A stretch of DNA of 64,000 nucleotides. Origin: Marsupella aquatica (lineage: Eukaryota; Plantae; Marchantiophyta). The notes beneath the pieces were generated by a model. It saw only the letters and a program-made list of their open reading frames with translations, was not told where the DNA came from and ran no database searches. The position numbers were made by a program, and so were the translations under genes. The stretch is from NCBI GenBank assembly GCA_973895155.1, contig OZ316899.1:11996834-12060833 (forward strand). The letters are read 5' to 3'. Within the stretch, counting starts at the first letter, position 1. Every line of letters starts with the position of its first letter. Positions 12,331 to 64,000 of this stretch are shown in pieces.

Positions 12331-12399
12331 TTTTTGGCGCTAGATGGAGGGGGCATTTCTTAAGCCATGAGATATGAAGTTAGAACGGAAGCGTAGGTA

Positions 12400-13671: not shown

Positions 13672-13733
13672 GAGAATTAGAAACCCTGGAGAATACCGAA
13701 GCCATTGCCAAGGATGTAAAATGAGCAAAAGCA

Positions 13734-30819: not shown

Positions 30820-33744
30820 CTTTTCATAGAGAAAATGGAGTTTTTCCTTATATCTATTTGCCTTCCTCCTTCAGTTATAGATGGAAATTGAGAAGAATAA
30901 CAAAGATAACTTCCTTGCAAATGGAGGTCTCCTTACCCCACTTGTGATGGTTCCTCTTCCTCTCTTCACAAATCCATCTAATCACTCAAGGTCCCAATTA
31001 ATTAGTCATTCTCTCTTGAATGTGCAACATGTGGTGCGTCCCATGGCTCCCTAAACCCAAGAAACCCCCTTGCACAAGCCGATTCCTGCAGGTTTCGCTC
31101 TTGGCAAGGCCGGTTCCGTGGCTGTAGCGGCATGGGGCGCTGCTAACTTCACTACTAACATTTTACACACATATACTAGACAGATCCTTCATCGGGTCAT
31201 GAGATACGTAGCCGGCCTATTCTATGCCTTCCCTTGTCTTCCTCTCATGGTCTTCCTTTAGGTATGTTTGGATTCCGCCACCGGAATGATCCCCAACTGG
31301 CTTGGGTAAGCCGCTAAGACCTCTCTCAGTTCGACACATCCAACTCTTACTATCTTGCTTACTCCCTTCTCTTGGTTGATGTGGGAAATCTTCAAACAAG
31401 TTAATGCGACACACAAATTAATAGCAAAATGACTCCTTCTGACTGAGTTATACCATGCACTTGTCATACAAACAGTACTTCTCATACACAAGACCTGCGA
31501 ACTAAGCCGTGAGGCCAACTCTATTCATCTCTTAGGCATGAGGAAACATGAATATACACAAGGGTCATAGTATAACTAACCAAGAGCTTCTTTTACTACT
31601 TGAATCCCAGCCCTACTGGTGCACTAAAAACTTGCTAAGGAAGAAGGCCCTAAACTCCCCGTTGCCCAGGTACTTATCCTAACAGTGGATCCGCCTAATT
31701 CCTTGCAGCGTAAGCCTAATCTATCCTAACTGAAATCTACCTATGTACAGCAAGGTAGGAGCACAAGTATTGCTCTTACCAGTGGATCCGCTCTCCCACT
31801 AATCTAAGTGTCAGGGCCGCCTCCTGGTTCTGATCCTAATTCTAAACTTGGAGATCTGAGCCCGCCCTGCCCACTCACGCCTCCTTCCACATCCGCCCTC
31901 CTTAAAAGGAGCGGCCCTCCACCACCGTCATGGTAGCGGTGGCTGATCCTCAATGGACGCCCCCAACACTTCCTCCGCAGCCATTGCCGTAGGTCCGTCT
32001 TCTGACAGATTACCTGCCCCAGACCGAGTCAACTCTCCATTGGCCTGACTGGGTCCACCCTCGGCTTCAGCATTAGCATCGGCCACGGCTTCCAATACGG
32101 CTACGGCCTCCCCGACATGCTCTAGTGGTGGATCTGGTACCCCAACTTCATCACTAATTGTCCTGGCCTTGGCTTTGCTATCCCCGCCTTCTAGGACAGT
32201 TGGATCCTCTGCCGTGACCCTGCCTGAGGTTGGTGTTGGGTTCTCCTCCGTGGTCACAACGGCTTGAGAAGCCGTGTTACTCCCTGACCTAGAAGGTTTC
32301 CGCTTCTTCTTCTTCCCTGTTTCGGCAATTGGTCCCTTCCCCTTGCCACTTACTTCCGGCACCGGTGCGAGTGTCGCGGCTTGTCCTTTGGCTAGTACTA
32401 CCCCTGGCAACTTGGTTGCCCCACTTGGAGTTGGAACTGATGAAGCCAAGCACTTAAATACTGCGGCTTGTTTCTTTAGCCGCTCTGTTTGGTTGTCGGC
32501 CCACCGCTGTAAGTTCTCCATCTTCCTCGTGCTTTCTTCCAACTCCTCCTGCATTTCGTCCAAGTCTTTCCGCGCCTCCTCCAGCTCCTTCGGGGCTTCC
32601 TCCAATTCCTTCTGGGCTTCCTCCAATCCCTTCTTCAAGGTAGCCCTCTCCTCTTGGGTTTCTCTCAGCTCCTTGTCAAGCTCCGTCATAACCTCAGACT
32701 CCATCTTGTTCATCTTGGTATAAGTCTGATCGAGCTGGTCGTCTTTCTCACGCAGGTCGGCCTTGAAGCTGGCTGTCAGGGATGCAAGCTCCTGCTGCAG
32801 CACAATAATCCCTTGATAGGATCTCCCTAACTCGGCCTCCTTCTGCTCAAGGGCTCCACAGATATCCTCAAGCTCCCCCTTCAACGCCCTCTCCCTCCTT
32901 TGGGTCTCCTCCATGGCCCGATTGTTGGTTGCTATGTGGGCCTCCTTTGCGTCCCTCAGCTCTCGCTTCCACTTCTCCCTTTCCTTGATCGCATCGGCCA
33001 ACTCCCCTTGGGTCCGAGTTAGTTTATCCTTGATAATCTGATTATCAGACTGAGCGGTATCCAGTTGCCCCTCATGATGTTTAGCTCATGCTGCTTAATC
33101 CGCAACTCATCTTGGGCTTTCTTAGCCGCCTTTAGATCCTCTGCCTTGGCTTCCTTCTCTCTAAGCCATCGGATGACCTCGTCCTTCTTTCTTCTCTCCA
33201 AAGCCACCGCTTCTTCCAATCGGCGTTTTTCCAACATCTCTCTCTGGAAAAAAGGTCCCTACTCCAACTCCACCCCAAAGATGTTGAGCGCAAGTTCCCC
33301 AGACATCTCCCCATACTCCATGGCTCTTTCTTTAGCATGTGGAGTGAGTAGTAGTCATCGGCATCAACCACCGCGGTCTTTGTTCCCAAGCCGCCTTCCT
33401 TATTTCTTCTATATTGGTTGGAGGGTTGCCCCATCTTTCTGGAAGCCGCCGGATGTCCTCTGGCCATTCTCCCCCACGTAAATCCTTCTCCCTAGCCAGG
33501 GCTACCTCCTCTGCTTCCCTGAGTCACTCCTAAAACTCCTGTGCCGTCTGTTTTATCCCGTCAAATCTTGGGGGAGTGACATGCGGTGGGGGAGACTCCG
33601 GGCTGCTCTGCTGGGTGGGGTCCCCTCGAACTACTCTTGGAAGCGTGGGGATGAAACGGCCACAGGTCCTTACTCCTGGGACATGATGGTCCGACCCATA
33701 GTCAGAGTCATTATTGTCGTAGTCCTCCACCACCTCCTCCCCGG

Positions 33745-36094
33745 TGTCACGCGATTGACATGGGTCTCAACACCAAAACCGTCACTATTGGGTGCCAAAA
33801 CCATCTCCTTGTACCTGAGGATCACAAAGGGATGCTATGAAGGCCGGTAAACACCAATTTATACCCTTAACACCAGACTATCATAGCAAGACTCTGTCAC
33901 ACATCACCCAAGCTCAATCCCTAGGAACCAAGGTTGGGATTCAGATCCTGTGCTCATGATAGTTCTGGTGAGAAAGGGTCTTCATAGGTATATTTCTATT
34001 CCGCCGTCGGAATGTACCCATAAACTAGTGACTCCCGACTGATTCCCGGCTTAGGGACTTCTAAGCCATTGCCCCACCACTCTGCCATTCCACTCTCAGC
34101 AATCAGAGCTATGATAGCCCTCACCCAACCCACTTCAATGCACCCGGTACACCTCTCAGTGGCGCTGCTAGTCCCATCATACACTCAAATTGCCTCACAC
34201 ACACAAACACATCCATGAGAGAAATGAGGCCTGAGAGGAAAACTCAATTAGATTCAAAGATTGCACAATAGTTCACTGAGAACACTTGATCTGAACACTA
34301 GGCCCGAAGGCTGTCTCCTCCAGATTGCGACATGCTTGCCAAACAAGCCCCGTGCTTGCCATGCAAGCTCAATCCTGAACCTGAGCCCGGCTCACTCTAG
34401 ATTGCGATGGTAGATTGGACTCAAACCAATCCCGTACTTGCCTTGCAAACTCAATCCTGAACTCAACCTCCTTCATTGCACTTCATTCTTGGGGACACGT
34501 ACAGATCTCACACCTCCATTTCAAAATAGCAAGTTACGCATGCACAGTTGACTTGACTTCAAAGCTGGTACCAGGTCTAAAGGCGATCTACCCCAGACTA
34601 TAATGAGGCCCGGCCTCATGCTTGCCCTGCAAGCTCAGCCCTGGCCATAAATCCCTTAGTGCTCTCTACCAGACAAAGGCCGGGACTCCCCATGGATCAC
34701 GTAGCCTTGCCAGACTGAACTGTAAATGTTCCTCCTGTTGCCCCTCAATCAGTGTCTCAGCCTTCCTAATGTGCTCACCGCAAATCACATTGAAATCCTC
34801 CCCACAGTTTACAATCACCAACACATCACCTATCACCAAGGCTTTGTATTGGGGAAAAAGAACCCAGTTGTGTTGCCTACTAGAAAGAGCCACAATCCAG
34901 CTTGCAAACCTGGCCAACTGTTGCTGTGACGCGTGGTTGATTACTCCCTGAGTAATAGCACAACCAAGCTCTCCCCAACGCACAGCTTCCAAGCCCAACC
35001 TTCTTTGCACAGAGCTCCTCCCTGCTGCTCAGTCTACGTGAGATCACACAAATGAAGTCCCCCCTGCCTCTATCGGGGGGCTGCTCTATATACTCTCATA
35101 CTGAGCCCAAATGGATGGATACTACGCTGTGGAGCCCCATCCCAGCCCTAACAAAGCCGCCACTATCTCTAACTACTGAACCCTAACTCGCAACTTTATT
35201 TCTATCTCAAATTGGCTATGTACTTCGAATTTCGCCCTCCTCCATGGTTTTTGCAAGCTTGCGCCTCCTCTCCCAATTTCTCTATTCAACCATTTGCTGC
35301 GTTGATAGCAGTGTTGGAAGCGACTTGAGCTCCTCTTTCCAACGAGGTCAATTATAGCCGATTTGGTCAAATACATAGAGTTATGCCCCACAACCGAGAG
35401 AGGGTACTCACTGCTGCGCTAACCCGAGTTACATAGCTAACCCGAGTTCGGTTAACCTAGCTATCCTATCTAACCCGAGTAGAGCTAACCCGTGGTCTCG
35501 GGTTAGGCCGCTACCCACTATCCGCTAACCTAGGCTAAGCTGAGCCCGAACCCGAGCTTGCCTATGCTAACCCAAGCCCGAGTTTAGGCTAACCCAAGTT
35601 CAGTCTAACCCAGGATCAATCTAATCCAAACCCGGGTTAAGCCTAAGCTGAAGCTGTGCTGACCTGAGCTAAGTTGAAGCCGTGCTTACCTGAGCTAAGC
35701 TGAAGCCGTGCTTACCTAAGCTAAGCCATGGCCGAGCTTGGGTTAACTTGAAACTGAAGCCGAATCCGCTAATTCCGGTCACAAGTTAACCCGTCACACT
35801 AATCAGGCCATATCTTCCTTAATACACCTCCGTTTCCCAAGTGTTTTATATCGATTTTACTCATCTTGACCAGATCTTTCCAATGCTCTTTATAGATCCG
35901 GATTTGGTGATATATTGAAAGAGATATGGTCGTCGATCACCCGCGACATTTCTTTTATTTCTCTACTCTTAACGCCATGATTGCCCTTATTCTTGCCATC
36001 TTGCTAATTGTTATGTAATATCAATAGCTACTCCTTGCATACAACAACCTACTTAATCAAATTACAGAATAAGGACCATGTCATTGGCGTCACA
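33745..36094 (-). mobile_element. Probable solo LTR (2350 bp) of a different family
   Basis: TG..CA ends; flanks CCCGG/CTCGG; interrupts the LTR ORF; shares a U5-position box with the gypsy LTR. Confidence 0.75.
35410..35790. repeat. Array of short direct and inverted GCTAACCCGAG / GCTAAGCTGAAGCCG repeats
   Basis: Many AACCCGAG/CTCGGGTT and GCTAAGCTGAAGCCGTGCTTACCT units. Confidence 0.75.
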
Positions 36095-38147
36095 CTCGGC
36101 TTGGACTACCGATTCCCCCTGCTGCTCTCCTTGTCTTGCTGTGAACACGGCCTCTTGCCAATCATAACTCATAGGTCCTAGTTCCTCCTCCAGCTTCTAG
36201 GCTGTCTTCTCCCTCTATTTACCGCAAACAGGAGCTTTAGGCTGCTCTCCCTTGGCTTTGGGACTCGAGGCTCCTACATACATTCGAACCCCCGACTCGT
36301 GTTCCGGCCTCCTTCTTTCCTTGGCTCCGGTAAAGGGGTTTTCCCTCATGAGTCGGCTTAGGCCGACTTCTGGGGCAATGTCCTGTACCGGTGCCGTTGC
36401 CATTGCCGTTGCCGTTGCTGTCCTCTTCTCCTTCTCCAGCAATTTCAGTAGATTCTGCATGCCTGGTTGCTGCATCGGCAAGTCTTTCGTCTTCGGCCTA
36501 AACACCTGCTCAATCGTAGGACTATCGGGCTGGTTGGGTTCCTCTGCTGCCGGCCTCTATTCCGGAACCTCCTCTAGTGTCCTTGCCTGCAGGGGAAGTA
36601 CCGGGGCAAAGATCTGACTACGGGCATACCGGCACAAGAGCGGCATCTGATAGCCAAGCTGGGACACGCTTCCCTTGCCGATCACCTGCTGTTCCTCCTG
36701 CAAGATCTTCTCCAGTTGGGTGAGGAGGTACCCGTTGTAATCCCAGCTTGGGTCTAGCCTCTCCGCCAGGTAGACCTGTGCCTTGTCGATCTCTGGCCTT
36801 GGCAAGTTACAATGCATGGTTACCCACAAGAAATCGATTATCTCTCCGATGTGCGGGTTGGTGTAGGTGTTCCGAAAGAAGCCATTCTTCGTTGATGGCC
36901 CTGGGAACGACCGGAACGACCGGAACAGGCAAGGTCTTCCTGGTATCTACTTTGGTCTTATTGCCTATTGGCAAGCCAAACGCTTCGGCAATCACCCGGG
37001 GAGTGAGATAGAAATCCTTCCCATGCACCCTTGTGGAATTGGTCTTGGGCTCCCATGATCCCACAAATTCTAATAAGTCTGAATCCGGCACCTCCGGCTT
37101 CAGCTATGGTAATTTCACAAAGGCTTCCAAGCCAGATCCGGCCATGAAGCCCTGGTACTTCCGAGTCTGCATAGCCGTAAAGCATGCATCCTCTTCATGT
37201 GCAAAGTGTAATTGCACTTCCTCGGGGAGGGTTGCCGCCCAGCCTTTCCAGGTGTCATCCCTTGTTGGAATGACATTGATGGGGTTGACCTCCTCTTCTT
37301 TGGCTTCTTCCTGCTTCCTGCTTCCCTGCTCGGCTGGCTTCCTTGGTGCCGCCGACCTTGTTCTCTTTGCAGGGGTGGCCTCTTCATTGTTGGCCCCTTT
37401 CCTCTTCATAGCGGCTGCCATGGATGTTTCTCCAAGCACGGTTGCCTTCGTCCACCCATCTGTGCTACCCTTCAACTCCCAGTGTATGTCGTTGCAGCGG
37501 TTGATGGCTTCCCCGATGCCGACAATTTTGTTCTCGCAAAATAGAGGGTCGTCTAGCTCATTGCCAGTAGGTGTCCTCAGGAATTCAGCCTTGATGAGTT
37601 CTCCTCCTAAGAAGGTAGACTTTTGCAGCTCCCACAGTCGAGCGAGCTCCTGCCATTCTCGAGCTGCTCTTTCCAATTCTTTGTCCTTGTAGGTCCCAAT
37701 GTCCTCAGTTGCCCATTCAAATTGGCATCCCCAAAAATGAGCAGCTTGATTGATGTTGCTCATACCCTTCTTGAGTTGATAGTCGGTATCTGCTCCCGTC
37801 CAGAGTGTTTGCCTAAGTAGCTGACAGTAGTTAGCTTCATGTAGTTGTCTGCTTAGTTCATGCTTGCAAATGAGCCACCATTCCTTGCGATCGGTCCTTA
37901 CCCCCCCTTGCCTGGTCTTCCTTTCCGTTAGTTACCCATAGCCTCCGGCACTTAGCGCGCCCTAACCCTAATCATGTTCCCTGTTGGGGCATCCTTACTT
38001 CCGGCCTCGGCCTGGGTTCCATAGTCACCCTTGATTGTTTATATTTTACTTGTTTTTGTTACTATACTAATGTGTTTCCAGGGTACACTCCTAATTCCTG
38101 GCCTAGTGATTCCTGGCTAGGCATGACACAACCTTTCCTGAATCTGT

Positions 38148-42107: not shown

Positions 42108-42530
42108 GGTGAACTTGTCAAAAACGCAAGGGCGTAGAAACTCCAAAACACAAAAACGCAAGGGCTCCAAAGCTCCAAAGCGCAAAGGCGTAAAGGTGCC
42201 TAAGTGCTTTCGCTCTACTCGGGAAAAAGAAAAGATCACGGCACTGGGGTAGACGTCGCAAGGTCCGCACTATAAGGAGTCCGGGGCTGCGTAGTTATCT
42301 TCTTTGGTGCGCAGGGAGGATTAGGTCGATCCTCCTGGTTGATCTTGAGGTGTTGATCTTCTCTCCAAACTAATAGTTAGTCACTAATCTACAGTTTAAG
42401 TGGTGTTCAACTCCTAATAACTTCTAAGTTCCTATAACACTACGCAGAGTAGTTATAAAGTCTTTGTTAGTTACAAAAAATTTAAAATTTTACTATTTTT
42501 TATTATTCCTACTTAACCTACTATATTACA

Positions 42531-44494: not shown

Positions 44495-47400
44495 GTTGAC
44501 TTAGTACACAGAGTTGAAGTTTTGCTTGAAATTCTCTGTGCATCGCGCCTAGAATTGTCAACCTGTTGGATTTCATTTCATAGCGTTTGGCCAAAGAAAA
44601 TTGTGCTGAGAAATGGCTGCAGCAAATTAACAGTAGTGCAGTTTCTATGTCTCCTCGATGAGAAGTGAGCCGAGTTGGTAGAGCAATTCTGGTACATCAT
44701 AAAAGTTGTTCTGCAATCGATTGAGAGGTGGAAATTGGTGTGGTTGATGCGTGTTAGGCGATCAAGGAAGAAGACGCTTAACACAAACTTTAGATAGATC
44801 AAGGCATTGTTTGCAAACAGAGGATTTAATTGTAGAAAGCTTGCTTGACAGATAGGTTTAGGTTTTAAACCTTGACAAAAGGCAGAGAGTTGTGGTTATG
44901 AATGTTGGAGTTGCAACCTACTTTGATGCAGCGTTGTCTATACTAGATAGTGCAAGCTCAAGTTGTCTATACTAGATAGTGCAAGCTCCAGTTAATTGAA
45001 GTAAATTTTGAGACTGGAGCTTCTTTCTCCGGAGACGAGTTAGGGACTTAGGGAAGATCTTGCAAGTGAGGCAAGGGTTTTGAAAAACATACTCACATGG
45101 GCCGTTCTTTGTTTCATGGCCCTAATTCAAAACCTGGTTTACTTCATAGTACTACATAGTACCTGTTTGGCAAAACAAATAGGTATTAGAATGGACCATT
45201 CTTTGTTTCATGGCCCTCTTTGGAGAGAATATTTGGCACGGGATGTCCAGTCTATTACGTCTTAGAATCTGAGATTTTTATGAGATCATTTGCTCCATTT
45301 CCGACGAGCACAAAAATGGTCAAGTATTATCAACCAACTGCCAACGAACGCTTGGGTTTTGTGGGAAACGCCCAGACTAGTTTGGGCATGAGCAACAAAC
45401 TGCCAAGACGTCCATAAGAGCCATCTTGACATTTGGAAGGGCCGTCTTGACGTCCGGAAGGGCCGCTTTGACATCGGGACGCTTGTAGAAGCCGCTAAAA
45501 GGCTATGAAGGAGGCTTTTCACGGTGACAGCAAACAGCAAACAGCTAATAGTAAAGCTCATAACAGCAAATGTCTGCACCAAAAAAATCTCCCCTAAACC
45601 TACATCTCTCGCAAAATGAAATTGAAACCTCTAAAATCCATTATTTTGAAACATATCGTAATACTAGCGCCCAACGCTACAGTATTGAAACAGTCTAGAA
45701 AACCCGAAACCTCATTCAAAACATCTATATGCAAAAGTATGCCAAAAAACAACTGTATACTAGCGCCAGGCGCTAGTATACAGACCTCAATAACAAACCT
45801 AAAATAACAGAGATGAACTAGAGACCATCAGATGCCAATTTATGAAAAATTGTGAAGGGGGGCAGTGGCATTCTAATATCACCAAATTATAATACATTAA
45901 TCCAACTTAAGATTCTCCTCTTCCCAGAGGAAAGTAGAGTCAAAAAACAATCTGGACAGCACATGTCTCACTTTGTAAACACCCATCAAAATTACAATCC
46001 CATCCGACAACTATTTTTAAAGTCTGGCTAGCCATCAGATTCTGAATCGGTTGTATCTAGTTCTGATTCTTCTTCACTACTTTGTGATCTATTAGTAGAC
46101 TCAGCTTCATCGTCTACATACTTGCTCGGCACGATGTCATCAACATAACGGTTCTTCAAAAACTTCCTATCCAAGCCCCTTTTGAGCCTTAGGCCTTTAC
46201 TTTCCCAAGTCATCATTCTCACAGAATCTGCCTTTTGAGCCGCCTTTTCTGCATAAGAAGGCAAGACAAACGGCTTCTCCGAGGTTTCTATTGCATTCCT
46301 AGCAACTTTCCTCCGTAGTTGAAAGCACTTCCAAAGATTCCACTCAGACCTGGAAAGTTGAATCCGATATCTTTAGTCGCATCTGGGAAAATGGTGGAAT
46401 TTTGGAGACACTAACGTCACCCTTAAAACGAAAAGAAAAAGGCAGGAAAGCTGAAGATCATTACTCAGGAGACTCTTCACTATCCTTAGATTCAGAAGAC
46501 CCGAGATTCACCACATTCTTGGAGGCACCATTATCTTTGGACTGTTGAGTACCGTCGCCTCCATCATTGTCCTCGTCAGAATCAAAATTAAGAATAGCAC
46601 GGAGTTTGTCATGCTTCTTACTCCCCACCTGCCGATGCGGAGGCGTGGACGTGGAGGCTTCTTTGTTCTTAAGAAGTCCAAAGAAAACTTTTGTGGCAGT
46701 GTCAAGAAACTCTTTACAATTTTCAATCCCAACTACAAACCTCCTACAATGATCTCCAACAACAAATGTACTTTCGCCCCCAACTATCCAGTCCATGACA
46801 ATATCCCCAGGGAGGGTAATTAATTCTAAAACTGACTGCATGAAACCCACAGGCAGCCTTGAATTCCCAACGAACGCAAGCTTTGGAAGAGGATCATTTT
46901 TTGGCACAGGAAAACCAATGAGATTGGTTATCAAAGGATCCTCTGTATGTGAAAGAGGTCAAAATTTGGGATCCTTCGGGACCTACCTTTGGACGAAACA
47001 TGCCCAAAAACATTGAGAGTGAGCGTAAAAATTTGCCCATCGAATTATGTTTTGTTCAAAATAAACATCAGATACTTCTTCGAGAATACGAAAACCATTC
47101 ATCAAGAGGATATGCCACACTAGCGCCTGGCGCTAGCGTCACCTTCAATGTCAAAAGGAGGACACAAAACAAAAACTCCAGAATAGCGCTCGACGCTATT
47201 ATACGTAACTGAATATCCAAGCGAGGCCTGTACATTGGGGTGCCCATCACAACATTGTGTGTCAAGATACACTGAAATTTCTGTGAATCTTGACAAGCTG
47301 CAATGACTTCAGAGACTTGGTCATAGTCGACCCTGTGCAAAATCGCCACATCATGGATCATCTGCCAGGAAAGGATCCATTATTCTGAAGAAGGCACTTG

Positions 47401-48336
47401 GAATCGTATAATCTTGAAGGTTCCATTTAGGAACCTTCCTTTCCACAAGTGTTAGTTTCAACCCATTCGGAAGATATATGAAACCAGCATCAACTCCAAA
47501 AGCCCTTTCCTTTCCCCCTCGGACAACCCCTTTTGCGCGATCCCCAGACTTCACCAGCTCTTTCCCCCAACCTTCAATATTAGAAACCCAATCCGATTTT
47601 TCTCCCTTGTTAAACAGCAAATCAAAACATTTTGTAACACTCGACTTGACAAAACAATGTCAAGTACACTTTCATTTGAAATTCCCTACATCTCTCTGCA
47701 ATCCAGTTGACGCAACTGAATCTCAAGAAGAAGATCCAAGCCTATCATCAACTGGTCCTCTCTTTTTCTTCTCCTTCATACTTGTGGCGTCCATTGGAAC
47801 CACTGCCTTTCCACTCTCCCCAGGGGTTCCCGGATCTGGTGTATTTTCCGCACCAGTGTTAGCTTCAGAGGCTTGAGGAGTAGCGTCATCTTTTACATCA
47901 GCGGTGGCATCCAACTTCCTTCCCCCTGAATGACAAAGATACCTTACTAAATGGAACTAGTTCTCGTAATAGCGCTCGGTGCTAGTATCAATAGGGGAAA
48001 AACATCTCATATGAACAAGAGCAAAAATCCCTAACTGAATCCTATGGGGCATACTTACATTTTTTAAGAGATCGAGTTGATTCACTAGGAGCTGCAGATC
48101 CATTCTTGGCCTTCACTCTTGGCTTTTGGCTCCGATCAACATGCACGACAACTGTCTTGCATTCTTCTGCAGCTCAGTTGTCGACACGTCCACTTCAATC
48201 GCACGACCCTGCTTCATCTCCGAGACATACCTTGTTGGGATTTGCAACTTTTGCAACTTCATGAAAGCGTCTTTCTCCACCTTGTCGAAAGGCAGATCCC
48301 ATTTGTTAGTGTCTAAATACCATGGGCAGTGGAGTC

Positions 48337-51300
48337 TGTGATGCCTAGCCAGGAATCACTCGGCCAGTTAAGTGGGTAAAGTAGGAGTGCACCCTAGAAA
48401 CACCTTAGTATAGGGACAAAACAAGGAAAATATAAACAATTAGGGGCGACCATGGAACCCGGGCCGAGGCCGGAGGTAAGGACGCTGGGGGTGAAAACTC
48501 GATTAGGGTTAGGGCGCGTTAAGCGTCGGCGGCTAGGAAGGATCAACGGGAGGAAGGACCGGAAGAGGAGAGGGGCAAGGAGCGCTTGCAGGAGATGGTG
48601 GCTCATTTACGAGCACAAACTAGGCAGACGACTAAGGGAGGCCAACTACTGTCAGCTGCTTAGGCAAGCACTCGGGGAGAGAGTAGATACCGACGATCGA
48701 CCTAAGGAGGGTATGAGCAACGTCAATCAAGCGGCACATTTCTGGGGATGCCTGTTCGAACGGGCAACTAAGTACATCAAGACTTACGAGGACGAGGAAT
48801 CAGAAAGGGCAGCTCGAGAACGGCAGGAGCTCGCTCGATTGTGGGAGCTGCAGAAGACGGCTTTCTTAGGAGGCAAACTCATCAACGCCGAGTTCTTGTG
48901 GACTCCTACTTCCAATCAGCTCGACGATCTTCTGTTTTGTAAAGACAGAATCATCGGCATTCGAGAGGCCATCAAGAACTGCAACGACATACACTGGGAA
49001 TTGAAGGGTAGCACGGAAAGGTGGACCCCGGCAACAGTGCTAGGAGAAACCTCCACGACAGCAGAGATGAAGAGGAAGGGAGCCGTCAACGATGAAGCCA
49101 CCCCGGCAAAAAGAACGAGGTCGGCGGCACCAAAGAAGCCAGTCGAGCAGCAGAGCAGGAGGCAGGGAGAAGCCGAAGAGGAGGAGGTTGATCCCATCAA
49201 TGCCATTCCAACCAGGGATGACACCTGGAAAGGCTGGGCGGCAACCCTACCGGTGGAGGTGCAACTACATTTTGCACGGGAGGAGGATGCATGCTTTACG
49301 GCCATGCAGACCAAGAAGTACCAAGGCTTCATGGCCGGATCCGGCTTAGAGGCCTTTGTAAGATTACCATGGCTGAAGCCGGAGGTACCGGATTCAGACC
49401 TATTAGAATTCGTGGGGTCATGGGAACCCGAGACCAATTGCACGAGGATATATGGGAAGGATTTCTATCTTACTCCCAAGGTGATTGCCGAAGTGTTTGG
49501 CTTGCCGATAGGCAATAAGACCAAAGTTGATACCAGGAAGACCTTGCCTGACAAGGAGTTCCGGTCGTTCCTCGGGCCATCAACGAAGAATGGCTTCTTC
49601 CGGAACACCTGCACCAACCCACACATAGGAGAGATGATCGACTTCTTGCGGGTGACAATGCACTGTAACTTGCCGAGGGCAGAGATCGGCAAGGCACAGG
49701 TCTATCTGGCAGAGAGGCCAGACCCAAGCCGGGACTACAACGGGTACCTCCTCAACCAATTGAAGAAGATCTTAAAGGAGGAGCAGCAGGTAATCGGCAT
49801 GGGGAGCGTGTCGCGACTTGGCTATCACATGTCGCTGTTGTGCCGGTATGCCAGAGGTCAGACCTTTGCCCCAGTACTTCCCCTGCAGGTAAGGACACCC
49901 GAGGAAGCTCCAGCACCGAGGCCGGTAGCAGAGAAGCCTCAACCACCTGTTAGCCCTACGATTGAGCAGGTGTTTAGGCCAAGGACGGAGGACTTGCCGA
50001 TGCAGCAACCAGGCATGCAGAATCTGCTGAAACTACTGGAGAAAGAAAAGAGATCGGCATCGGCAACGACAACGACAACGACAATCGCAACAATGCAGGA
50101 CACTGCTCCAAAGGTAGGCCTACACCGGCTTACAAGGGAAAACCCCTTTACTGGAGACAAGGAGAGAATCAGGCCAGAATCCAAGCCGGGTGTTCGAATA
50201 TACGTGGGAGTCTCAAGCTCTGAATCTGAGGCAGAATTGCCTGAAGCTCCTACCGACGAAGAGGAGAGGGAGAAGCCGGAAGTCCAAGAAGTAGAGGAGG
50301 CAGTGGAGGATTGCAGCCATGATAACTCCGGCTATGGGTCGGACCATCACGTTCCAGGAGTAAGGACCTGTGGCCGGTTTATCCCCACACTTCCAAGGGT
50401 AGTACGGGGGGACCCCAACCAGTAGAGTAGCCCTGAGTCTCCCCCACCAGATGTTGCTCCCCCGAGCTTTGACGGCATAAAACAGACGGCGCAGGAATTT
50501 CAGGAGCGAATCAGGCAGGAAGAGAAGGAAGCCCTGGCTAGGGAAAAGGATTTGCCAGGAGGAGATTGGCCGGAGGACATCAGGCGGCTAGCCAAAAAAG
50601 GAAGCAAACCTCTAGCCACGATTGAAGAGATCCGCAAGACGGCTTGGGAGCAGAGGCCGCGGTGGATGATGCCGATGACTTCTACTTCCTCCACCTATGC
50701 TAAAGACAGAGCCATGGAGTATGGGGAGATGTGTGGAGAACTGGCGCTCAACATCTTTGGGGAGGAGTTGGAGCAGGGACCCTTTTTCCAGAGGGAGATG
50801 TTGGAGAAGCGCCAATTAGAAGAAGCGGTGGCCTTGGAAAGAAGCAAGAAGGACGAGGTCATCCGTCGGCTTAGGGAAAGGGAAGCCGAAATCAAGGACC
50901 TGAGGGTGGCCAAGAAAGCCCAAGATGAGCTACGGATTAAGCGACATGAGCTAAATATCATGCAGGGCCAGTTGGATACCGCACAATCTGATAATCGGAT
51001 GATCGAGAATCTACTGACGCGGACCCAAGGAGAGTTGGCCGACGCAATCAAGGACAGGGAGAAATGGAAGCGAGAGCTGAGGAATGCAGAGGAGGCCCAC
51101 ATCACAGCCAACAACTGGGCCATGGCGGAGACCCAAAGAAAGGAATGGGCGTTGAAGGGGGAGCTCGAGAAAATCCGCGGAGCCCTTGAGCAGAAGGAAG
51201 CCGAGTTAGGGAAATCCTATCAAGGGATTATGGCCCTGCAGCAAGAGCTTGCGTCCCTGACGGCCAGCTTCAAGGCCGACCTACGGGAGAAGGACGAGAT

Positions 51301-53038
51301 GCTCGATCAGACTTACGCCAAGATGAACCAGATGGAGTCTGTCATCATTGCAGAGCTCGACAAGGAGCTAAGAGCAACCCGGGACGAGAGGGCTACCTTG
51401 AAGAAAGAACTGGAGGAAGCCCACAGGGAATGGGAGGAAGCCCAGAAGGAACTAGAGGAGGCGCGCAAGGACCTGGACGAGGTGCAGGAGGAGTTGGAGG
51501 AAATCACGAGGAAGATGGAGAACCTACAGCGGCGGGCCGACAACCAAACAGAGCGGCTGAAGAAACAAGCCGCAGTATTTAAGTGCTTGTCTTCATCAGG
51601 CCCAACTCCAATTGGGGCAACCAAGTTACCAGGAGTGGTACTGGCCGAAGAACAAGCCGCGCCACCTGCACCAGTGCCGGAAGTAAGTGGGAAGGGGAAG
51701 GGACCAGCTGCCGAACCAGAAAAGAAGAAGAAGCGGAAACCTTCAGGGTCAAAGAGTAATACGACTCCGCTGGCCGTGGTGACCAAGGAGGTAGACCCAG
51801 CACCAACCTCCGGCATGAACACGGCAATAGATTCCGCTATCACCAAAGGTGGGGATGACGCGGCCCAAGCCGAACTACTCAATAATGAGGCCGGTATCCC
51901 AGATCCGCCTCTTGAGCAGGCCGGGGAGATCATGGCCGAGGCTGAGGCCGTAGCCGAGAATGATTCCCGAGCCGACGCCGATGCCGATGGTAGACCCAGT
52001 CAGGCCGATGGAGAGTTGACTCAGTCAAGGGCAGGTAATCTGTCAGAGAACGAACCTACGACAGTGGCTGAGGAGGAAGCGTTGGGGGCGTCCATTGAGG
52101 ATCCACCACCGGTGTCGTGACGGTGCAAGGGCGCCGTTCCTTTTAGGAAGGGCGGACGTGGAGGTAGGAGGCGTGAGTGGGCAGGGCGAGCGCTGATCTC
52201 CAAGTTTAGGATTAGGATCAGGACCAGGAGGCGGCCCTGACACTTAGCTTAGTGGAATTGCGGTTCCACTGGCAGGAGCAACACTTGTGCTCCTGCCTTG
52301 CTGTACATAGGTAGATTCGGGCAAGTAGATTACTGTTAGGTAGATTAGGCTTATGCTGCAAAGAATTAGGCGGATCCACTACCAGGATAAATACCTGGGC
52401 AGCGGGGAGCTCAGGGCCTCTTCTTTAGCAAGTTTTTAGTTTGCACCAGCCGGGCTGGGATCAAGTAGTAAGAGAAGCTCTCGGTTAGTCATACCGTGAC
52501 CTTGTGTATATTCATGTTTCCTCATGCCTAAGAGCTGAATAGAGTTGGCCTCACGGCTTAGTTCGCAGAGCTTGTGTATGAGATGTACTGTTTGTATGGC
52601 AAGTGCATGGTATGACTCAGTCAGAAGGAGTCATTTTGCTATTTGTGTGTCGTATTAACTTGTGTGAAGAGTGCCCACATCAACCAGAAGGAAGGAAAGT
52701 AAGCAAGGGAGTGAGAGTTGGATGTGTCGAGCTGAGAGAGGTCTTAGCGGCTTAACCAAGCCTATTGGGGATCATTTCGGCGGCGGAATCCAAACATACC
52801 TAACAAGATGGAGGGGAAGACAAGGGAAGGCCTAGATTAGGCCGGCTACGTATCTCATGACCCGATGAAGGATCTGTCCAGTATATGTGTGTAAAATGTT
52901 AATAGTAGTAGTAGAAGGAAGTTAGCAGCGTCCCATGCCGCTAAGCCACGGAAACGGCCTCGCCAAGCATGAAACCTGCGGGAATCGGCTTGAGCTGGGG
53001 GGGTTTCTTGGGTTTAGGGAGCCATGGGACGCACCACA
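48337..53038 (+). mobile_element. 4702-bp solo LTR containing a long ORF
   Basis: TG..CA ends, perfect TSD GAGTC (48332-48336, 53039-53043); first ~226 bp and last ~977 bp match the 1.2-kb LTRs at 11113 and 17905; no PBS, PPT, gag or pol. Confidence 0.95.
48713..52120 (+). CDS. LTR-encoded ~1135-aa protein (Transposase_32/Athila-ORF-like domain plus long coiled coil), one in-frame TAG at 50423
   Basis: ORFs 48452-50425 and 50552-52120 share a frame; the sister copy has CAG (DPTQQSS) at the stop; LLEFVGSW..IYGKDFYLTPKVIAEVFGLP; E/K/L heptad region. Confidence 0.8.
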
Positions 53039-55201
53039 GAGTCTCTCCCACTCTGACAAGGCGCGGGGTGGAAACTTTCCCTCAGCTGGGTACATTGAAT
53101 ATAGATCAACAAGATGGTCACCATCTTTTATCATCACCCACTTTTGAAATGCACCAGGGTAAGCCCACAAAACCTCAAGAGATCTCAACTCCATCCACAT
53201 GTAGAAACGGTAAACATATCATTTGGCACGTTTTTGGTTTCGCTCAGTGTAGTCCTCCTTGTCTGCGTACTTTGATGGCCACATTATGTTGAAAAATTTA
53301 GCCTTGACAAGGTCTCCAAATGATTTGAATTCTTCAATAATGGACTTCATGAGAAAATCCAGGGACTCACAACCAGACTTCACGAGACGATCATCTGGCA
53401 TGCGATCCAAAACCTACTCCAGCAAGGTCAGGATCAATCCAGTAGCAATTTCCTCCACTGAATTCCAGATATGCCAGGTATGACACCACTATTTTACAGG
53501 ATCGTCGTTCACACTAGCCTGATGAAAGAACTGTTTCCGAATCTCCGGAGTACAATGGGTGACGAGAAGTGTACACCTTAACTTCAGATCCAGATAAGTC
53601 ACTGCAATAAACAGGCGAGTGCGATCCATAGTGCAAACAATTGTATCAGGTTTCTTTTCTCTTTTTCTTCTCTGTCACGGAAAACATTTTGGCACATGTG
53701 CCCAAGTAGTCATCAAAATCAGGGTGCAGTAATGGACTGATCTTTGTTACTTTGATCGCCCAATCTTTTGTCGCTTCCTTCATCATAGCTTCATGCCTCT
53801 TCTGTGTCTCCTCTTTGGACCACGGAGTCCCCTGGGTGGCTGCAAAATCCATGTCCACTTTGAAGTGGTTTGTGTAAGATTTAATCTTGTTCTCACACAA
53901 AATGTAGATGAGCGCGTCTTGTGGCATCTTGTGTGTATACCAAGAACCCTTGCGAGTCTTCTTTTGAATGGCTTCAAACTTTGCATAACTTGTAGCATCA
54001 ATGAGGGGTTTGTAGTGCTCTAGGTTGCGTGATAAAAGACGAGAGATTCTATCGGCATCAAGAATCCAAGATGGCTCGACCACAGCTTGTCCCAACCTAC
54101 GTGAAAATTTAAATGGAAATTAGCAGCGTCAGGCACTAGTAAAACACCAACGATAAATATCACATCAAAACTCCATCTTGAACTAGTACGTCATATTAAA
54201 TGAGGTTGTCCTGAACATTGACTTACTGGTTCACAGCGTGCATGGTAGCCTCGAGCTCCACGAGGGAACCTTTATCTCCATTGAAAACAATGCAAGTCAC
54301 ACAAGGGTGGTACTTGATGTTGTCCGGATGCTTTGCTGTCACAATCGACCACGAATACAAACGGTGATTTCCATCGAAGACACAAAACATCTTCTCCTTC
54401 AAAACTTTGAAATCCGGATCAGCGTCACACTCTTCCTCAAACTTGTCATTCTAGGCAACCCAGATTGGGTCCCAAGAGGCTCGAATCTCATTAGTGAAAA
54501 TTTGTGGAACCCCATCTGCATTTGTTGGCTGAACGTAGAATGGCATGCCCATGCGCAAATTGTATCCAGAAATCCGCTCTGCTTTTGCAATGTCCGCACG
54601 ACTTCCGTATGAAGCAATCGATACCCTTCTCCAATCCTCTGAAATCTTTGCCAAAGGACAAGACATGCTTGGAGATGTAATCGTCCATTGAAAGAGGCTG
54701 AAAAGGTCGCTAAGACTCACCTTGCAAAGGAGTTCCAGGCGAATCCACGAGCTACGCCCGCTGGGATAAGAAATGCGGCTACAAACTCTCTAACCAATGC
54801 CCTCTATGAGGATTCCATCAAGGAAATATCTTTGGAAGAGGAGAAGGAGATCTGGGAGTCCCTCATGGTTGTTGCTACCCCCAAAAGTTTGCCTCTGTTC
54901 TGCAAAGTGTGAGGCAAGACTAGAAAGGTAAAGGTGAGCTCAAATATTTGGTGAGGATGCAAAAGTGTGTGAGACTTCCATTTCTTCATAGGTATTTGCT
55001 TCCAGGCCAAGGATGTCGAGACAAAAGTGCTCACATCTTCAAGATGACTGTGAAAGGGGAAGGATCTGGGATTGACCTTCTCCGGAAAATGCAGCCTGGT
55101 GGTTCATTGGAGGGGTCATGGGTGAGTTTCGACGTCATGCATAGAATTACATCAGACTGGCTAACCTTTAGTGTTCATGTATATGATCATCACTATCAGG
55201 G

Positions 55202-57035
55202 TGTGACACGGGTAACGTGTCACATAACCAAACGCATGTCCTAGATTAAAACTTATACGGTCATTAGGACCGTAGCCGTAGCGTAGAATAGCACGGATAG
55301 CCGTTTTTGACATTATGAATAGATTAGGAGTAGATTAGTTCACCAAATGATTACAAATTAAGGAAGAGGATTATTACGCTTGACCAAGGTATGGTGGCGG
55401 CGGTGGAGTAAAAATCCGTTAGGAGATCATGCTTGGACCGAGACGCCGACTTCAGCTCATTAACGACCAAAACGGCCTTGCCCTCTCACGCTCGAGCTCA
55501 CCCTGGCACCCCCCATAAGAGCGGAGTCAATGGCACTGCAGGCCATTTGCTCATTTCTACCTTTCGGAATTTGTGATGCCTTGCCAGGATCACAAAGTAC
55601 TTAGTTAAGCCTAAAATAATGGCTAAATAAAGATTAGGTAGATAGAATAAGGGAGGAATAAGGATCAAAGTTGATTGCAACGTGTTCGGGGGAAATTGTG
55701 ATAGGATAGGATCCAACGGTCGCGATTAAGTAGGATTAGGGTTATGACCTAATCTGGGCTTGATCAGGTAAGCCATCAAGAGGCGGCTTCGTAGGGAGGG
55801 GACAGACACTCTGTACACTTGGTCATTTGCTTGTTTGATCAACCTAGGGAGGAGGAAGCAGCTGCCGATTGATCGGGGGAGGTGGTTAGGGAATTGCTCA
55901 AGCTCTTTTCTCTTTCCCTGGAATGACCACGATGAATCAAGCGGCCAAGTTTTGGGGTTGTTTGCTTGAAGAAGCACGGCAACTCATACCAACTTACAAA
56001 GACGTCGAGCCGGAACAAGCAGCAAGGGAACGGGCGGAGCTCGCGCGGTTATGGGGAATTCATAAGACGGCTTTTGCGGGAACAGAAGAAGTCCTTGAGA
56101 AATTCGCATGGACTCCCACCAGTGCCGAGCTTGACGAATTGCTGATCCAACAGAATCGAGTCGTTGGAATTTGGGAGGCGATTAAGAACGCTGGGCAGCC
56201 GGTGTGGGAGTTGAAAGGTCACACTTTGGCTTGGAGCAAGGAAGCCATTCTTGGAGAGTTCTCAGGAATGGAGGAGATGAAGCGAAAGGGTAGTTCGGCA
56301 TCTGCAACACCAGCTAAGCGGAACCGGTCGGAGAGGCAGGCTAAGGCTGAAGCCGTTCCAGTTTGTGATAGGGCAATAGAGGATAAGTTGATGGCAGGTT
56401 GGGCGGATAGACTACCTGCCGACTTACAACTGCAGTTTGCACGAGAAGAAGATGAGGTCTTTTGTGCTATCCAGGATAACAAGTATTCAGGATACATGAA
56501 CAACACTGGCTTAGAGGGATTCATCTGATTACCATGGCGGTTAAAAAAAATACCAGATGAGGATCTGTTGGACTTTGTGGGATGCTGGGAGGCTTCTTCC
56601 AACATGACGTTGTTGTATGGAAAGGTGTTCGAACTAACACCTACGCTTATCGAAGCCGTCTTCGCTTTACCAACAGGAAGGAAGACTAAGGTGGAGCAGA
56701 GGAAGACGTTGCCGGATGACCAGTTCAAGTCATTTCCAGGGCCTTCCACTAAGAATGGGTTCTTCAGGAATCAATGTACAAACCCGCATATAGGGCAGCT
56801 GATTGATTTCCTGAGAGTCACGTTGCATTGTACCTTGCCAAGAGCAGAAATCGGCAAAGCCCAGGTATTTTTGGTGGAGAATATCGATTCAAGCCGAGAC
56901 TACAACGGCTATCTCTTAATGCAGTTGAAGAAGGCATTAAATGAAGAGAAGCAGAGCATTGGGGAAGGAGCGATATCCAGACTAGGGTACCATCTGCAAT
57001 TACTTTGCCGATATGCAAGAAGCCAGTCTTTCGTA
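55202..57035 (+). mobile_element. Truncated LTR-like insertion carrying a diverged homolog of the LTR ORF
   Basis: Starts TGTGACAC at the break in the transposase; ORF 55923-57030 MTTMNQAAKFWGC..STKNGFFRNQCTNPHIG..LLCRYARSQ; right end lost. Confidence 0.7.
55923..57030 (+). pseudogene. Diverged homolog of the N-terminal part of the LTR-encoded ORF
   Basis: Collinear with 48713-49870; in-frame TGA at 56526. Confidence 0.85.
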
Positions 57036-60000: not shown

Positions 60001-60255
60001 TAGCTCGATGGAAGATAGATAGTAGCCCGCCAAAGGGTTAGAGATCAGACTTTCACAAGTGACCTGCCCAAGGGCACCCATTGTATTGATCACGAGATTT
60101 TCAAAAAGTAAAGTGTTTGAGTTTGGGCCTCAAATCGTGTCTATCACTTGTCTAGATCGTAGCCTAAAACAGTTTGTTTTCCTGAGGTGACCCTTGCATT
60201 GAGTCCATGCAACATTGGCGACCATACTGGGGATACCTTGTGGCAATTAGGCAAG

Positions 60256-61979
60256 ATGGGTGATAGCGACAAGATTGATCGGATTTCCCGCATTGTCATG
60301 ACGATGATGCGGAGTATAAGGAAAGAGGAGATTGAAGCTGAGAAAAAGAACAAAGATGCGGGCAGAACGACCGGTTGTCTCCAAGAGGTTTTGAAGGTAG
60401 AAGGGTAGTTCGATGGGAGGAATGTAGCAAGTTACGTGAAGCGTTACCTGACAATAGCAGCTATCTACAAGTTCAATGAGGATACAACCATGAAGGAGTT
60501 CCTGGTTCTGGTGGAGCCAGAGCTAACCTCCATGGTAAAGTTGATCATTGACTCGGCTGAGAATTGGGATGATTTGATTCCAAGATGAAGGAGGAGTTCC
60601 AGGCTGAGGATGCTGATAGAGTCACTCAAGCCACGTTTCTTGATTGGGTGAATGATCGTAATAAGAAGCTGAAGGGTCCGCAAGAGTTGCTAAGGGAATT
60701 CAAGCGTAAGGTGTCCCAGTTACCAAAGAGAGATGTTGGGATCATTGAGATGCAGCGCTCCACTCTCTTCTTGAGAGCAACGGATGAGGATCTTAGAGAG
60801 GAACTGGAAAATGCAATGGAGTTACTGGAGCCGACTAGGGTGACCTTGTCAAACGATTGGAACCAAGTGGAAAAGGCGATGTCAAAAGTGAGCAATTGGC
60901 ACCGAAGGCAAGAGTTGGACAAGGAAGCCGCAACTCATGAGCTGAAGGTCCCTGAACCGTTGTTGGCTAAGGCAAAACGGGAACTAGCCAAGGAGGAAGC
61001 GTTGCCGGTAATAGATGATCTTGCGAAAATGATGCAGAACTTGAAAATCCTGACTACACATTTGGCTGAAAAGCCGAAGGCTGGAAGCATCCATGAGAGG
61101 AGACGGGAGACCCAAAGCTGGCCATGCATGTGGTGCGACAATAAGGATCATGACAAGAGGGAATGTCAGGACCTGAAGGAAGCAGCTGATAAGGGGCTGG
61201 TCAAGTTCATCGGAGAGATTGGCCAAAAGAAGATATCATTTCCGGACAATGAAGAGCCGATTCCCTTCACTTCAAACAAGGGAGGGATGAAGGCATTGGC
61301 CAAGAGGCGGGCTGGTAAAAGAAGTGGAGAGGCATCCTCTTCACATGTGGAAGCAAACGTTTATGATATAGAGTTGGATGGCCATGTGATCGAGTCGGAT
61401 TATGTCTGTCAAAAGTCGGGATGGGAGGACCCGGTTCTGATCAATATGATTACAGTCAAAGTAGGAGCGGCTTGGGACATACGGGGGGACATAGAAGCAA
61501 ACTCTAAATGGAGGAAAACTGATGAGGATGATACCCCGTTGCAGTCGGGGGAACAAGAAAGACGGGAAACTTGTGAAAGGGAGAGAAAGGTTAGGTTCAA
61601 AGAGGAAGAGGACATTGAGAAGCAACCGGCTGCTGAAAAGCCGATTAGGAAGGATCCAGGTTGGGTGCTCGGAAGGGATTTGGATCAGGCCATGTATCCA
61701 AAAATGGTAGCCAACAAGTTTTGGAGCCAGCAGGCTCAGAGGTTTACCAATGCTAAGCTATTCGGGAGCATGAAGCGAGAGATCCAGGAAGCCATTTTGG
61801 AGAGGTCGAAGAGAAAATGGATATACAAAGAGGGACCTCATACCTTGATGGGGGAGGCCCAAGGATTGGACTTGGGTGGATTTCAAACTTATGCAACCAT
61901 TGCTGATGCGAAAGCTGATGATGAGTTTGAGGATGCGAAGAAGGAATTCAAGGAAGAAGCTGGAAAGAACGGAGTCTAA
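60256..61979 (+). pseudogene. gag: Gag, degenerate
   Basis: FDGRNV, EDADRVTQATFLDWV, knuckle CMWCDNKDHDKREC; stop at 60406 and frameshift near 60583. Confidence 0.75.
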
Positions 61980-62000
61980 CTTGCGCTTGACAATAGGCTC

Positions 62001-62600
62001 GTGGCCAGAGTCAAAAGTCGAGCAGCTGAGGTTCAGGTAAGGTTGTTTGCAGGTTTTGGAACGACAAAGGAAGGTTTCACTTACCAAGATGGGCACTGGG
62101 CAAGGGCTTGTCTAGAAGGCGAGTGCAAAATAAGGGGAATGAAAGGCAAAGTGAGGGCCTTATTTGACTTAGGTTCTGAGATTAACTTGATGTCTAAGAG
62201 TGTTTATGAAAAAGGGCAATGGATGATTGATAAGGAGTTGGTTTGGGCTGTGAATTCCATGAGTTCCATGAGGGATTTCCTTTGGGGTGGTTGTTTTGAT
62301 GTTATTGTGAAGTTCGGGAATGTGGCCCAATCTTGTAATATTTTTGTTCATGAACTATTGTCATTCCCACTCATTTTGGGCATGCCATTCATAACTACGT
62401 TGAGAATGGAGACCAAGGTACTTGATGATACTACGTACATGGTGAAGATTTGGAGTAGCGATGGGATCCAGGTGGTGCAATTCCCTACTGTGTTCCCTAG
62501 AAATGTGCAAAACCGGAAGGAATTGCGAGAACCAAGGACTGAGGTCGAGAGGAACTCTAACGAGGAAAGAGAACAGGGAAACAGGTTTGCGCACTACTGA
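62001..62600 (+). CDS. Retrotransposon aspartic protease
   Basis: VRALFDLGSEINLM and LILGMPF motifs. Confidence 0.75.
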   Translation: MARVKSRAAEVQVRLFAGFGTTKEGFTYQDGHWARACLEGECKIRGMKGKVRALFDLGSEINLMSKSVYEKGQWMIDKELVWAVNSMSSMRDFLWGGCFDVIVKFGNVAQSCNIFVHELLSFPLILGMPFITTLRMETKVLDDTTYMVKIWSSDGIQVVQFPTVFPRNVQNRKELREPRTEVERNSNEEREQGNRFAHY

Positions 62601-62842: not shown

Positions 62843-64000
62843 AGGAGGCTTTTCACGGTGACAGCAAACAACAAACAGGAAACAGCAAATAGCAAACAGT
62901 AAAGCTCATAGCAGCAAATGTCTGCACCAAAAAATCTTCCCTAATCCGACATCTCTTGTAAAATGAGATCGAAACCTCTAAAATCCATCATTTTGAAACA
63001 CATCGTAATACTAGCGCCCAGCGCTACAGTCCTGAAATAGTCCAAAATACCCGAAACCTCATTCGAAACATCTATATGCAAAAGTATCCCCAAAAACATA
63101 TGTATACTAGCGCCCGACGTTAGTATACAGACCTCAATAACAGACTTAAAACAAAGATCAACTAAAGACCATCAGATGCCAATTGATGAAACATTGGGAA
63201 AGGGGGAAGTCGTATTCTAATATCACCCAACTGTAATACATCCCAAGTTAAGATTGTCCACTTCACAGAGGAAAGTTTAGTCAAAAAACAATGTGGACAG
63301 TCCGTCTCACTTTATAAACACCCATCAATATTACATGTGTTCACAATAGCGCCAAGCGCTATTTTGTAAAATAGCCAATATCTATATCCCCAAAATATAG
63401 TTTTAAAGTCTGGCTAGCCATCAAATTCTGAATCAGTCGAATCTCGTTCTGATTCTTCTTCACTACTTTGTGATCTATCAGTAGACTCAGCTTTGTCGTC
63501 TACATACTTGCTCGGGACGATGTCATCGACATAGCGATTCTTCATAAACTTTCTATCAGAGCCCCTTTTTAGCCTCAGGCCTTTGCTTTCCCAAGTCAGC
63601 ATTCTCACAGAATCTGCTTTTTGAGCCGCCTTTTCTGCATAAGAAGGCAAGACAAACGGCTTCTCCGGGGTTTCTATTGCATTCCTAGCGACTTTCCTCC
63701 ATAGTTGAAAGCGCTTCCAAAGATTCCACTCAGACCTGGAAAGTTGAATCCGATATCTTTAGTCGGGTCCGGGAAAATGGTGGAATGTTGGAGACACTAA
63801 CGTCACACTTAAAAAGAAAAAAAAGACAGGGAAGCTGAAGATCATTACTCAGAAGACTCTTCACTATCCTCAGATTCAGAAGACCCGAGGTTCACCACTT
63901 TCTTGGAGGCCCCATCATCTTTGGACTGTTGCGTACCATCGCCTCCATCATTGTCCTCGTCAGAATCAAAATAAAGAACAGCACGGAGTCTGTCTTGCTT
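62843..64000. mobile_element. MULE-type element copy 2, left end (runs off window)
   Basis: Collinear with 45509-46610, including the C-terminal exon ..PSYAEKAAQKADSVRM..ESDG/EFDG. Confidence 0.9.

Follow-up and report, generated by a model that had tools for sequence, protein, structure and literature searches.

The 64,000-nucleotide stretch of contig OZ316899.1 analysed here (the window) holds, at positions 48337-53038 on the plus strand, a solo long terminal repeat (LTR) of a Ty3/gypsy retrotransposon family, and this LTR contains a long open reading frame (ORF). The copy, designated A, is a 4,702-bp TG...CA unit whose termini (TGTGATGCC...CACCACA) are the same as those of the LTRs of a gypsy element at 11113-12330 and 17905-19101. 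A perfect target-site duplication, GAGTC, flanks it on both sides (48332-48336 and 53039-53043, plus strand). Contigs were compared from four sequencing runs (X1, X2, X5 and X6) that stem from four studies and carry four organism labels; X1 may come from the source of the window itself. In two of the four runs, X1 and X2, contigs of the empty site join position 48331 to 53039 and skip exactly 4,707 bases (4,702 + 5), thus fixing the boundaries of copy A independently. The insertion disrupts the reading frame of another repeat. Neither a primer-binding site (PBS) nor a polypurine tract (PPT) was detected on the plus strand inside 48337-53038, and the same scan recovers the PBS (12335) and the PPT (17892) of the full element; a Pfam search of the segment gave no match to gag or pol families. 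The segment is a solo LTR, as the original prediction had stated.

Copy A is composed of a 376-bp leader, a 3,408-bp frame and a 918-bp trailer. The frame (48713-52120, plus strand) has 1,135 codons and a single in-frame stop at 50423-50425, in agreement with the original prediction. Of the contig depth at 50423, 107,881 of 121,062 in X1, 281,591 of 288,290 in X2, 14.3 of 14.3 in X5 and 171.9 of 171.9 in X6 carry a letter other than that of copy A; the stop is thus a lesion that is either private to copy A or rare. The ORF region is covered by contigs in all four runs. Three segments, all on the plus strand, can be distinguished by comparison with the 1.2-kb LTRs of the gypsy element. The 5' segment (48337-48562), which is common to both LTR forms (96% identity), contains, as motif matches only, ATATAAA at LTR position 94, which resembles a TATA box, and AGGTAAG at position 138, which resembles a splice donor. 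The middle segment of 3,499 bp (48563-52061) is absent from the short LTRs. The 3' segment (52062-53038; 97% identity) starts with the last 19 codons of the ORF and its stop, which the short LTRs retain, and ends in a long hairpin (52880-53038; -63.4 kcal/mol, z -3.96, none of 200 shuffles as good). Rfam yielded no match.

The gypsy element with the short LTRs (11113-19101, plus strand) is flanked by an ACGTG duplication and harbors a PBS (12335), gag, a broken pol with reverse transcriptase (RT), RNase H and integrase, and a PPT (17892). This domain order in Pfam is that of Ty3/gypsy elements, and its internal region of 5,574 bp is nearly filled by gag-pol. Neither a chromodomain nor an additional RNase H was matched by Pfam on the 915-aa pol frame. 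The PBS is presumably of the tRNA-Asn type. The two short LTRs differ at 9 of 1,197 sites. Pol ends 12 nt into the 3' LTR, as originally noted for this element; the overlap is nevertheless not a conserved feature, because in L001, a relative with 61% identity, about 40 nt lie between the end of pol and the LTR. The original argument from this overlap is incidental. Whereas the position of the pol stop varies between the two elements, both retain a GAGGAC...GGGG motif directly upstream of the 3' LTR (17875-17904 in the window, 892-934 in L001). A scan for the pol locus in metagenomes retrieved two loci (L001 and L002) among 75 pattern matches, neither of which extends to an LTR-borne ORF, and scans of viral contigs and prokaryote genomes found none. 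In one X5 contig a PBS directly follows an LTR end, the length of that LTR not being fixed by the contig. A CACTA remnant with Transposase_21, DUF4218 and DUF4216 (7493-10801, minus strand) adjoins the short-LTR element.

Two further copies of the long LTR are present in the window. Copy B (31030-38128, minus strand) is a second solo LTR of 4,744 bp after subtraction of a nested insertion; it is 82-84% identical to copy A, is flanked by the duplication GGTTG/TGTTG and holds the same ORF (37763-31930), with stops and frameshifts. The insertion nested in this ORF (36094-33745, minus strand) is a 2.35-kb TG...CA unit with CCGAG/CCGGG flanks, likely the solo LTR of a third family. Copy C (55572-57035, plus strand) comprises the LTR start and the 5' part of the ORF before it breaks off; it shares the first LTR bases with copy A, its ATG lies 352 or 361 nt into the LTR, and its amino acid identity is 58%. 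The distance from the LTR start to the ATG is accordingly similar in the three copies (376 nt in A, 365 nt in B, 351-360 nt in C). A 376-nt contig from X5 begins in the flank of a different insertion, crosses the LTR start and reaches sequence on the ORF side.

The short LTRs correspond to positions 48337-48562 fused to 52062-53038, with 96-98% identity. Within the shared segments, 129 sites group copy A with the short LTRs against B, compared with 16 that unite A and B and 9 that unite the short LTRs and B (counted after exclusion of gap columns and of the 9 sites at which the short LTRs disagree with each other), and B is thus the outgroup. Since this outgroup has the long form, the long LTR is ancestral and the short LTR represents a deletion of 3,499 bp. 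These site patterns indicate that the 1.2-kb LTRs arose from the long form by one deletion. The arrangement of an ORF within the LTR is old and stable, because it is common to A, B (about 20% diverged) and C (about 40% at the protein level).

A comparison of the ORF between copies A and B resulted in a ratio of nonsynonymous to synonymous substitution rates (dN/dS) of 0.29 (bootstrap 0.24-0.34; 1,076 codons, after removal of eight stop pairs and of two zones adjacent to a frameshift and to the insertion). All six sub-regions have a ratio below 1 (0.16-0.52): it is lowest in the core domain (0.16), amounts to 0.20 in residues 1-115, to 0.31 and 0.25 in the linkers and to 0.30 in the coiled coil, and is highest in the tail (0.52). 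Between A and C, dS is saturated and the proportion of nonsynonymous differences (pN) is 0.27. The substitution pattern is indicative of purifying selection on the ORF, and a ratio of about 1, which the original prediction had named as evidence against its model, was not obtained. Selection on active copies is probably stronger than the measured value, which includes neutral decay after insertion. The frame stays open for 87 codons upstream, to an ATG at 48452, which we rejected as the start: this stretch does not look coding, the A-versus-B differences by codon position being 23/23/18, and it contains a 2-nt gap. Judged by these features, the ORF is likely to start at 48713.

The encoded protein is predicted to consist of an N-terminal helical domain, a basic linker with a motif resembling a nuclear localization signal (NLS), a core domain, a proline-rich linker, a coiled coil of 270 residues and an acidic tail with KKKKRK; the NLS-like motifs are located at residues 120 and 1004. 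The N-terminal domain (residues 1-115; 48713-49057, plus strand) is modelled with a predicted local distance difference test score (pLDDT) of mostly 80-96 and has no informative fold match, only generic helical bundles (best Z 5.8). The core domain (residues 166-385; 49208-49867, plus strand) is the best conserved part. The predicted coiled coil (residues 691-960; 50783-51592, plus strand) contains no proline and 44% E/K/R/Q, and its matches to coiled-coil families in Pfam are sub-threshold. A membrane helix is missing, the best 19-residue hydropathy mean being 0.76, and the protein is therefore unlikely to be env-like; the env position in the original prediction is best understood as a location only.

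A sequence search of 1.84 billion representatives provided 19 matches at E <= 0.001, the best of them 41% identical; the two matches with an organism name both belong to the leafy liverwort Calypogeia fissa, which points to a liverwort as the likely host. A word-index search for homologs among longer proteins gave none for the N-terminal 385 residues and none for the profile, and among proteins of near length it retrieved only three of the profile's own members. The ORF locus was found neither in viral nor in metagenome contigs. Two histone rows in a sequence search of the PDB (E 0.06 and 2) were rejected as chance matches. Neither the ORF nor any of its 20 aligned members gave a match to PF20167, PF03078 or PF10536 (plant mobile domain, PMD), even at E 10, and the curated cut-offs were thus not reached. 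In the Atlas, the neighbours of the core domain are clusters of Transposase_32 (PF20167) and ATHILA (PF03078), with scores of 0.86-0.89, and nine of the ten best named matches fall into one family or clan. A first structure model (residues 165-385, pLDDT 48) was uninformative, its best match (Z 5.1) being to a helix pair. For a second model (residues 1-385, pLDDT 57), Foldseek found no match at E 0.001 in the PDB or viral libraries, with three weak rows in a repeated look. Among the top 50 rows of the structural comparison, VANC21 in complex with DNA (9lnk_A; Z 4.6, root-mean-square deviation 4.7, 169 residues aligned) alone extends over the core domain. These weak leads point to a core domain of the Transposase_32/ATHILA/VANC type. 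According to the available portions of PMC13547354, VANC resembles the chromatin regulator MAIN, and VANC as well as the Athila domain are predicted to form pentamers via long coiled coils. On this model-based evidence the most likely role of the protein, which we propose tentatively, is that of a nuclear accessory factor in chromatin regulation or anti-silencing.

Taken as a whole, we consider it probable that a 4.7-kb LTR of a gypsy family wholly contains a selected protein gene for a predicted nuclear factor of the Transposase_32/ATHILA/VANC type. The architecture itself, with the ORF as an integral part of the LTR, is highly probable, and it is reasonably likely that the ORF resides in the unique 3' region (U3). 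It lies wholly within the LTR, as required of a U3-encoded gene of the MMTV (mouse mammary tumour virus) sag type, and since it starts after the first base of the LTR (376 nt after it) it is placed downstream of the position of the PPT in the family's full element, as the original prediction had it. Autonomous elements would carry two long LTRs and measure about 15 kb in total; paired long LTRs are expected because the short LTR is a deletion of the long form. An ORF in U3 would be present as a single copy at the 3' end of the genomic RNA, from which reverse transcription would copy it into both LTRs. Its expression would depend either on splicing or on a promoter in the 5' end of the LTR itself. 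Recombination between the LTRs would leave solo LTRs with the whole gene, and the short-LTR derivatives would either use protein supplied in trans or dispense with it.

Several observations weigh against this proposal. The window contains no element with two long LTRs, and the sole pol-bearing element there has short ones. No pol or PPT is linked to ORF-specific sequence among the contig pieces listed at the pol-LTR junction (32 of 1,529), and the lone contig that spans the first 272 bases of the LTR comes from a non-pol flank. The TATA-like motif conserved at LTR position 85-94 may just as well indicate where the genomic RNA begins, in which case the ORF would be situated in the repeated region (R). 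All three copies in the window (A, B and C) are broken, so that of the original claim that solo LTRs scatter complete cassettes the layout stands and the intactness, for these copies, does not. For the ORF and its 20 aligned members, Pfam recognizes no family at cut-off. In the Atlas, the scores remain below the 0.9 mark, stem from one source and are based on fewer than 170 shared features. The match to VANC21 has rank 34, within the chance range for helical matches, the pLDDT of the core being mostly 40-65, and VANC21 is absent from the top 50 rows for the first model. Depth in X6 (pol 21-216, LTR 5' end 89-104, ORF about 90-270+) resembles two LTRs and two ORFs per pol but was left out of the evaluation, because summed contig depth does not equal copy number.

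The promoter motif leads to an improbable alternative in which the ORF belongs to the LTR and occupies R: the genomic RNA would start near the TATA-like motif (position 94), the ORF would be read as a 5' extra ORF like ORF1 of Ogre or the 5' additional ORFs (aORFs) of Tekay, and gag-pol would be expressed via splicing. The retention of ATATAAA at 85-94 in A, B and the short LTR, a donor-like GTAAG after it in A, B and C, and the 918-bp trailer with no conserved strong TATA or AATAAA are in accordance with this scenario. It would however require a minus-strand strong-stop DNA of about 4.5 kb and an R region of 4 kb, for which we know of no precedent. The same motif moreover suits an ORF-specific promoter, and the trailer of about 900 bp is the best conserved part of the LTR (90% between A and B, compared with 80% in the 5' segment), as expected of a promoter, R and the unique 5' region (U5). 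Quite improbable is the scenario that the 4.7-kb unit is a non-autonomous cassette between LTR ends that is mobilized whole, the gag-pol elements having short LTRs. Every long copy in the window is indeed solo or broken off, the only pol-bearing element has short LTRs, and pol is joined to ORF-side sequence in none of the contigs listed. Yet standard reverse transcription is impossible for a unit that lacks PBS and PPT, and the short LTR is derived, so that the ancestor of the pol-bearing element had a long LTR. Among the 91 joints in the four runs, the 15 best-supported ones do not include that of the short form (48562 to 52062), which hints weakly at short LTRs being less frequent than long ones.

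The occurrence of such domains in DNA transposons, as described in the available portions of PMC13547354, and the presence of CACTA remnants in the window would fit an independent insertion of the 3.5-kb part, e.g. a DNA-transposon fragment with a VANC- or plant mobile domain (PMD)-type gene, into a 1.2-kb LTR. This origin is extremely improbable, because the part has neither inverted termini nor a duplication at its junction, the ORF ends within the segment common to the short LTRs, and both the outgroup B and the far more diverged C share the arrangement; the termini of its own that the original prediction had named as evidence against the model are thus missing. An ancient capture of the ORF may have taken place, but it has been part of the LTR ever since. 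The remaining alternative retains the architecture and differs in the function of the protein, which would be env-like or involved in particle formation or integration targeting rather than in anti-silencing; it overlaps with the preferred proposal, its probability is not to be added to that of the others, and we regard it as rather unlikely. The sense orientation at the presumed 3' end of the genomic RNA, the long coiled coil and the weakness of the evidence for a VANC fold speak in its favor, but the protein has no hydrophobic segment and two NLS-like motifs, and all leads from the Atlas and the fold comparison point toward one group of plant transposon domains. An env-like role is unlikely; a role in integration targeting or nuclear import may apply.

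Genes within LTRs are known from retroviruses: sag of MMTV, with roughly 320 codons, resides in U3, and nef as well as foamy-virus genes overlap the LTR. Like sag, the ORF of the gypsy family is a gene within the LTR, and sag is duplicated at both ends of its element. In the available portion of bioRxiv 10.1101/2023.11.02.565355, an LTR deletion removes Sag in the MMTV derivative TBLV (type B leukemogenic virus), which thus provides a natural deletion derivative comparable to the 1.2-kb LTR. The ORF described here differs in encoding an unrelated protein of about 1,135 codons in a plant retrotransposon instead of a retrovirus, and its placement in U3 is a proposal.

Extra ORFs of plant retrotransposons have been placed in the internal region (PMC7264820, and excerpts of PMC6317226 and PMC11728184), and LTRs of up to about 5 kb are documented for non-chromoviruses in excerpts of PMC6317226. 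The closest counterparts are sense aORFs (aORF-3S/eORF-3'F), namely the Athila ORF with PF03078/PF20167, those of Bagy2 and SIRE, and the PMD ORF of Ogre, which are likewise extra conserved sense ORFs and likely contain a related domain (same sources). The sunflower Athila ORF with PF20167 exhibits NLS-like motifs, as does the ORF here, according to the same excerpts. In these sources plant aORFs lie between pol and the 3' LTR or before gag, whereas the present ORF is contained in the LTR and is retained by solo LTRs. Of the features of aORF-3S and env-like genes, it shows sense orientation, conservation and selection, but it is not located upstream of the PPT and has no transmembrane segment; it further differs from plant aORFs in lacking a membrane helix and a Pfam match at cut-off. 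VANC proteins of VANDAL MuDR transposons, MAIN and PMD (excerpts of PMC13547354; PDB 9lnk) combine a globular domain with a long coiled coil, as the protein here does, VANC being a transposon accessory protein with a weak structural match to the core domain. There is however no sequence match to VANC, the structural match is not significant alone, VANC is dicot-specific and originates from DNA transposons according to these excerpts, and the protein described here has an extra N-terminal helical domain. Phygy and Selgy of moss and clubmoss resemble the parent element in an internal region that is nearly all gag-pol with no chromodomain or extra RNase H match, and the host here is likely a non-seed plant as well. 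In the available portion of PMC6317226 these elements are short and devoid of extra ORFs, and Phygy prefers NCGN sites; their likeness to the parent element is one of description, not of tree. Exact-phrase searching of open-access papers retrieved no description of an LTR-borne ORF in a plant retrotransposon, and the available portions of PMC12885004, PMC7466625 and PMC4585706 mention no LTR-borne ORFs; that portion of PMC4585706 gives no support to an LTR-borne ORF in Xenopus xretpos. Neither the extra ORF nor the size of the LTR is thus new. What the phrase searching did not retrieve is their union, a position for an accessory ORF that appears to be new in plants.

A second LTR-borne gene is possible in an unrelated Athila-like element on the minus strand. 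Its TG start at 42530 cuts a gag-like frame, and 4.36 kb separate it from a CA at 38170, which is followed by a PBS that we take to be of the Athila type. Neither an internal repeat nor a PPT match was found in 42530-38170, and the window holds no 3' LTR or duplication for it. The segment contains a broken ORF that extends from 425 nt after its start (about 42106) to 39612. When 794 frames were ranked with a profile from which the window's sequences had been excluded, this ORF came out on top of those outside the family, with 6.7 bits (E 0.21) compared with 3.4 bits for the best of 1,000 shuffles. The use of hhalign gave E 0.002-0.03 at low probability, and a locus scan for this ORF found none in viral contigs. 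On these sequence comparisons 42530-38170 is a candidate 5' LTR with a possible second LTR-borne gene, the N-terminal domain of which would be faintly related to the core domain. A bolder scenario, which we consider doubtful, is that a VANC/PMD-like anti-silencing gene has entered the LTR of liverwort non-chromoviruses more than once, the window alone holding at least two unrelated lineages with such an LTR. Each element would then carry two copies, and each solo LTR would be a self-contained cassette that de-silences the family in trans, the ORF-deleted short-LTR derivatives included. If true, LTR-based annotation would have missed a class of LTR-borne anti-silencing genes.

The remaining features of the window belong to other repeats. 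A young Ty1/copia element (29490-23694, minus strand) has 151-bp LTRs with 99% identity, GGTTC on both sides and an unbroken gag-pol of 1,545 codons. A frame with two NSD-type PHD-finger-like matches below cut-off is followed by two frames that appear BRCT-like by eye (22202-19612, minus strand) and that may be cargo of an unclassified transposon. At 60216-62600 a PBS-like TGGCGA precedes a gag/protease-like frame with no Pfam match, another unclassified retroelement. A 1.1-kb repeat occurs twice in opposite orientation (45509-46616 and 62843-64000; 85% identity).

Extra ORFs of plant elements are listed as internal, and LTRs count as non-coding and serve as neutral clocks; a selected gene of 3.4 kb within the LTR breaks both assumptions for this gypsy family. 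The LTR-borne ORF represents a plant parallel to the LTR genes of retroviruses. Solo-LTR formation is the host's normal way of disarming a retrotransposon, but here the accessory gene would persist. The long LTR and its ORF-deleted counterpart form a natural pair, which, in a group with haploid transformable relatives, makes the accessory function of the Athila/Transposase_32 type directly testable.

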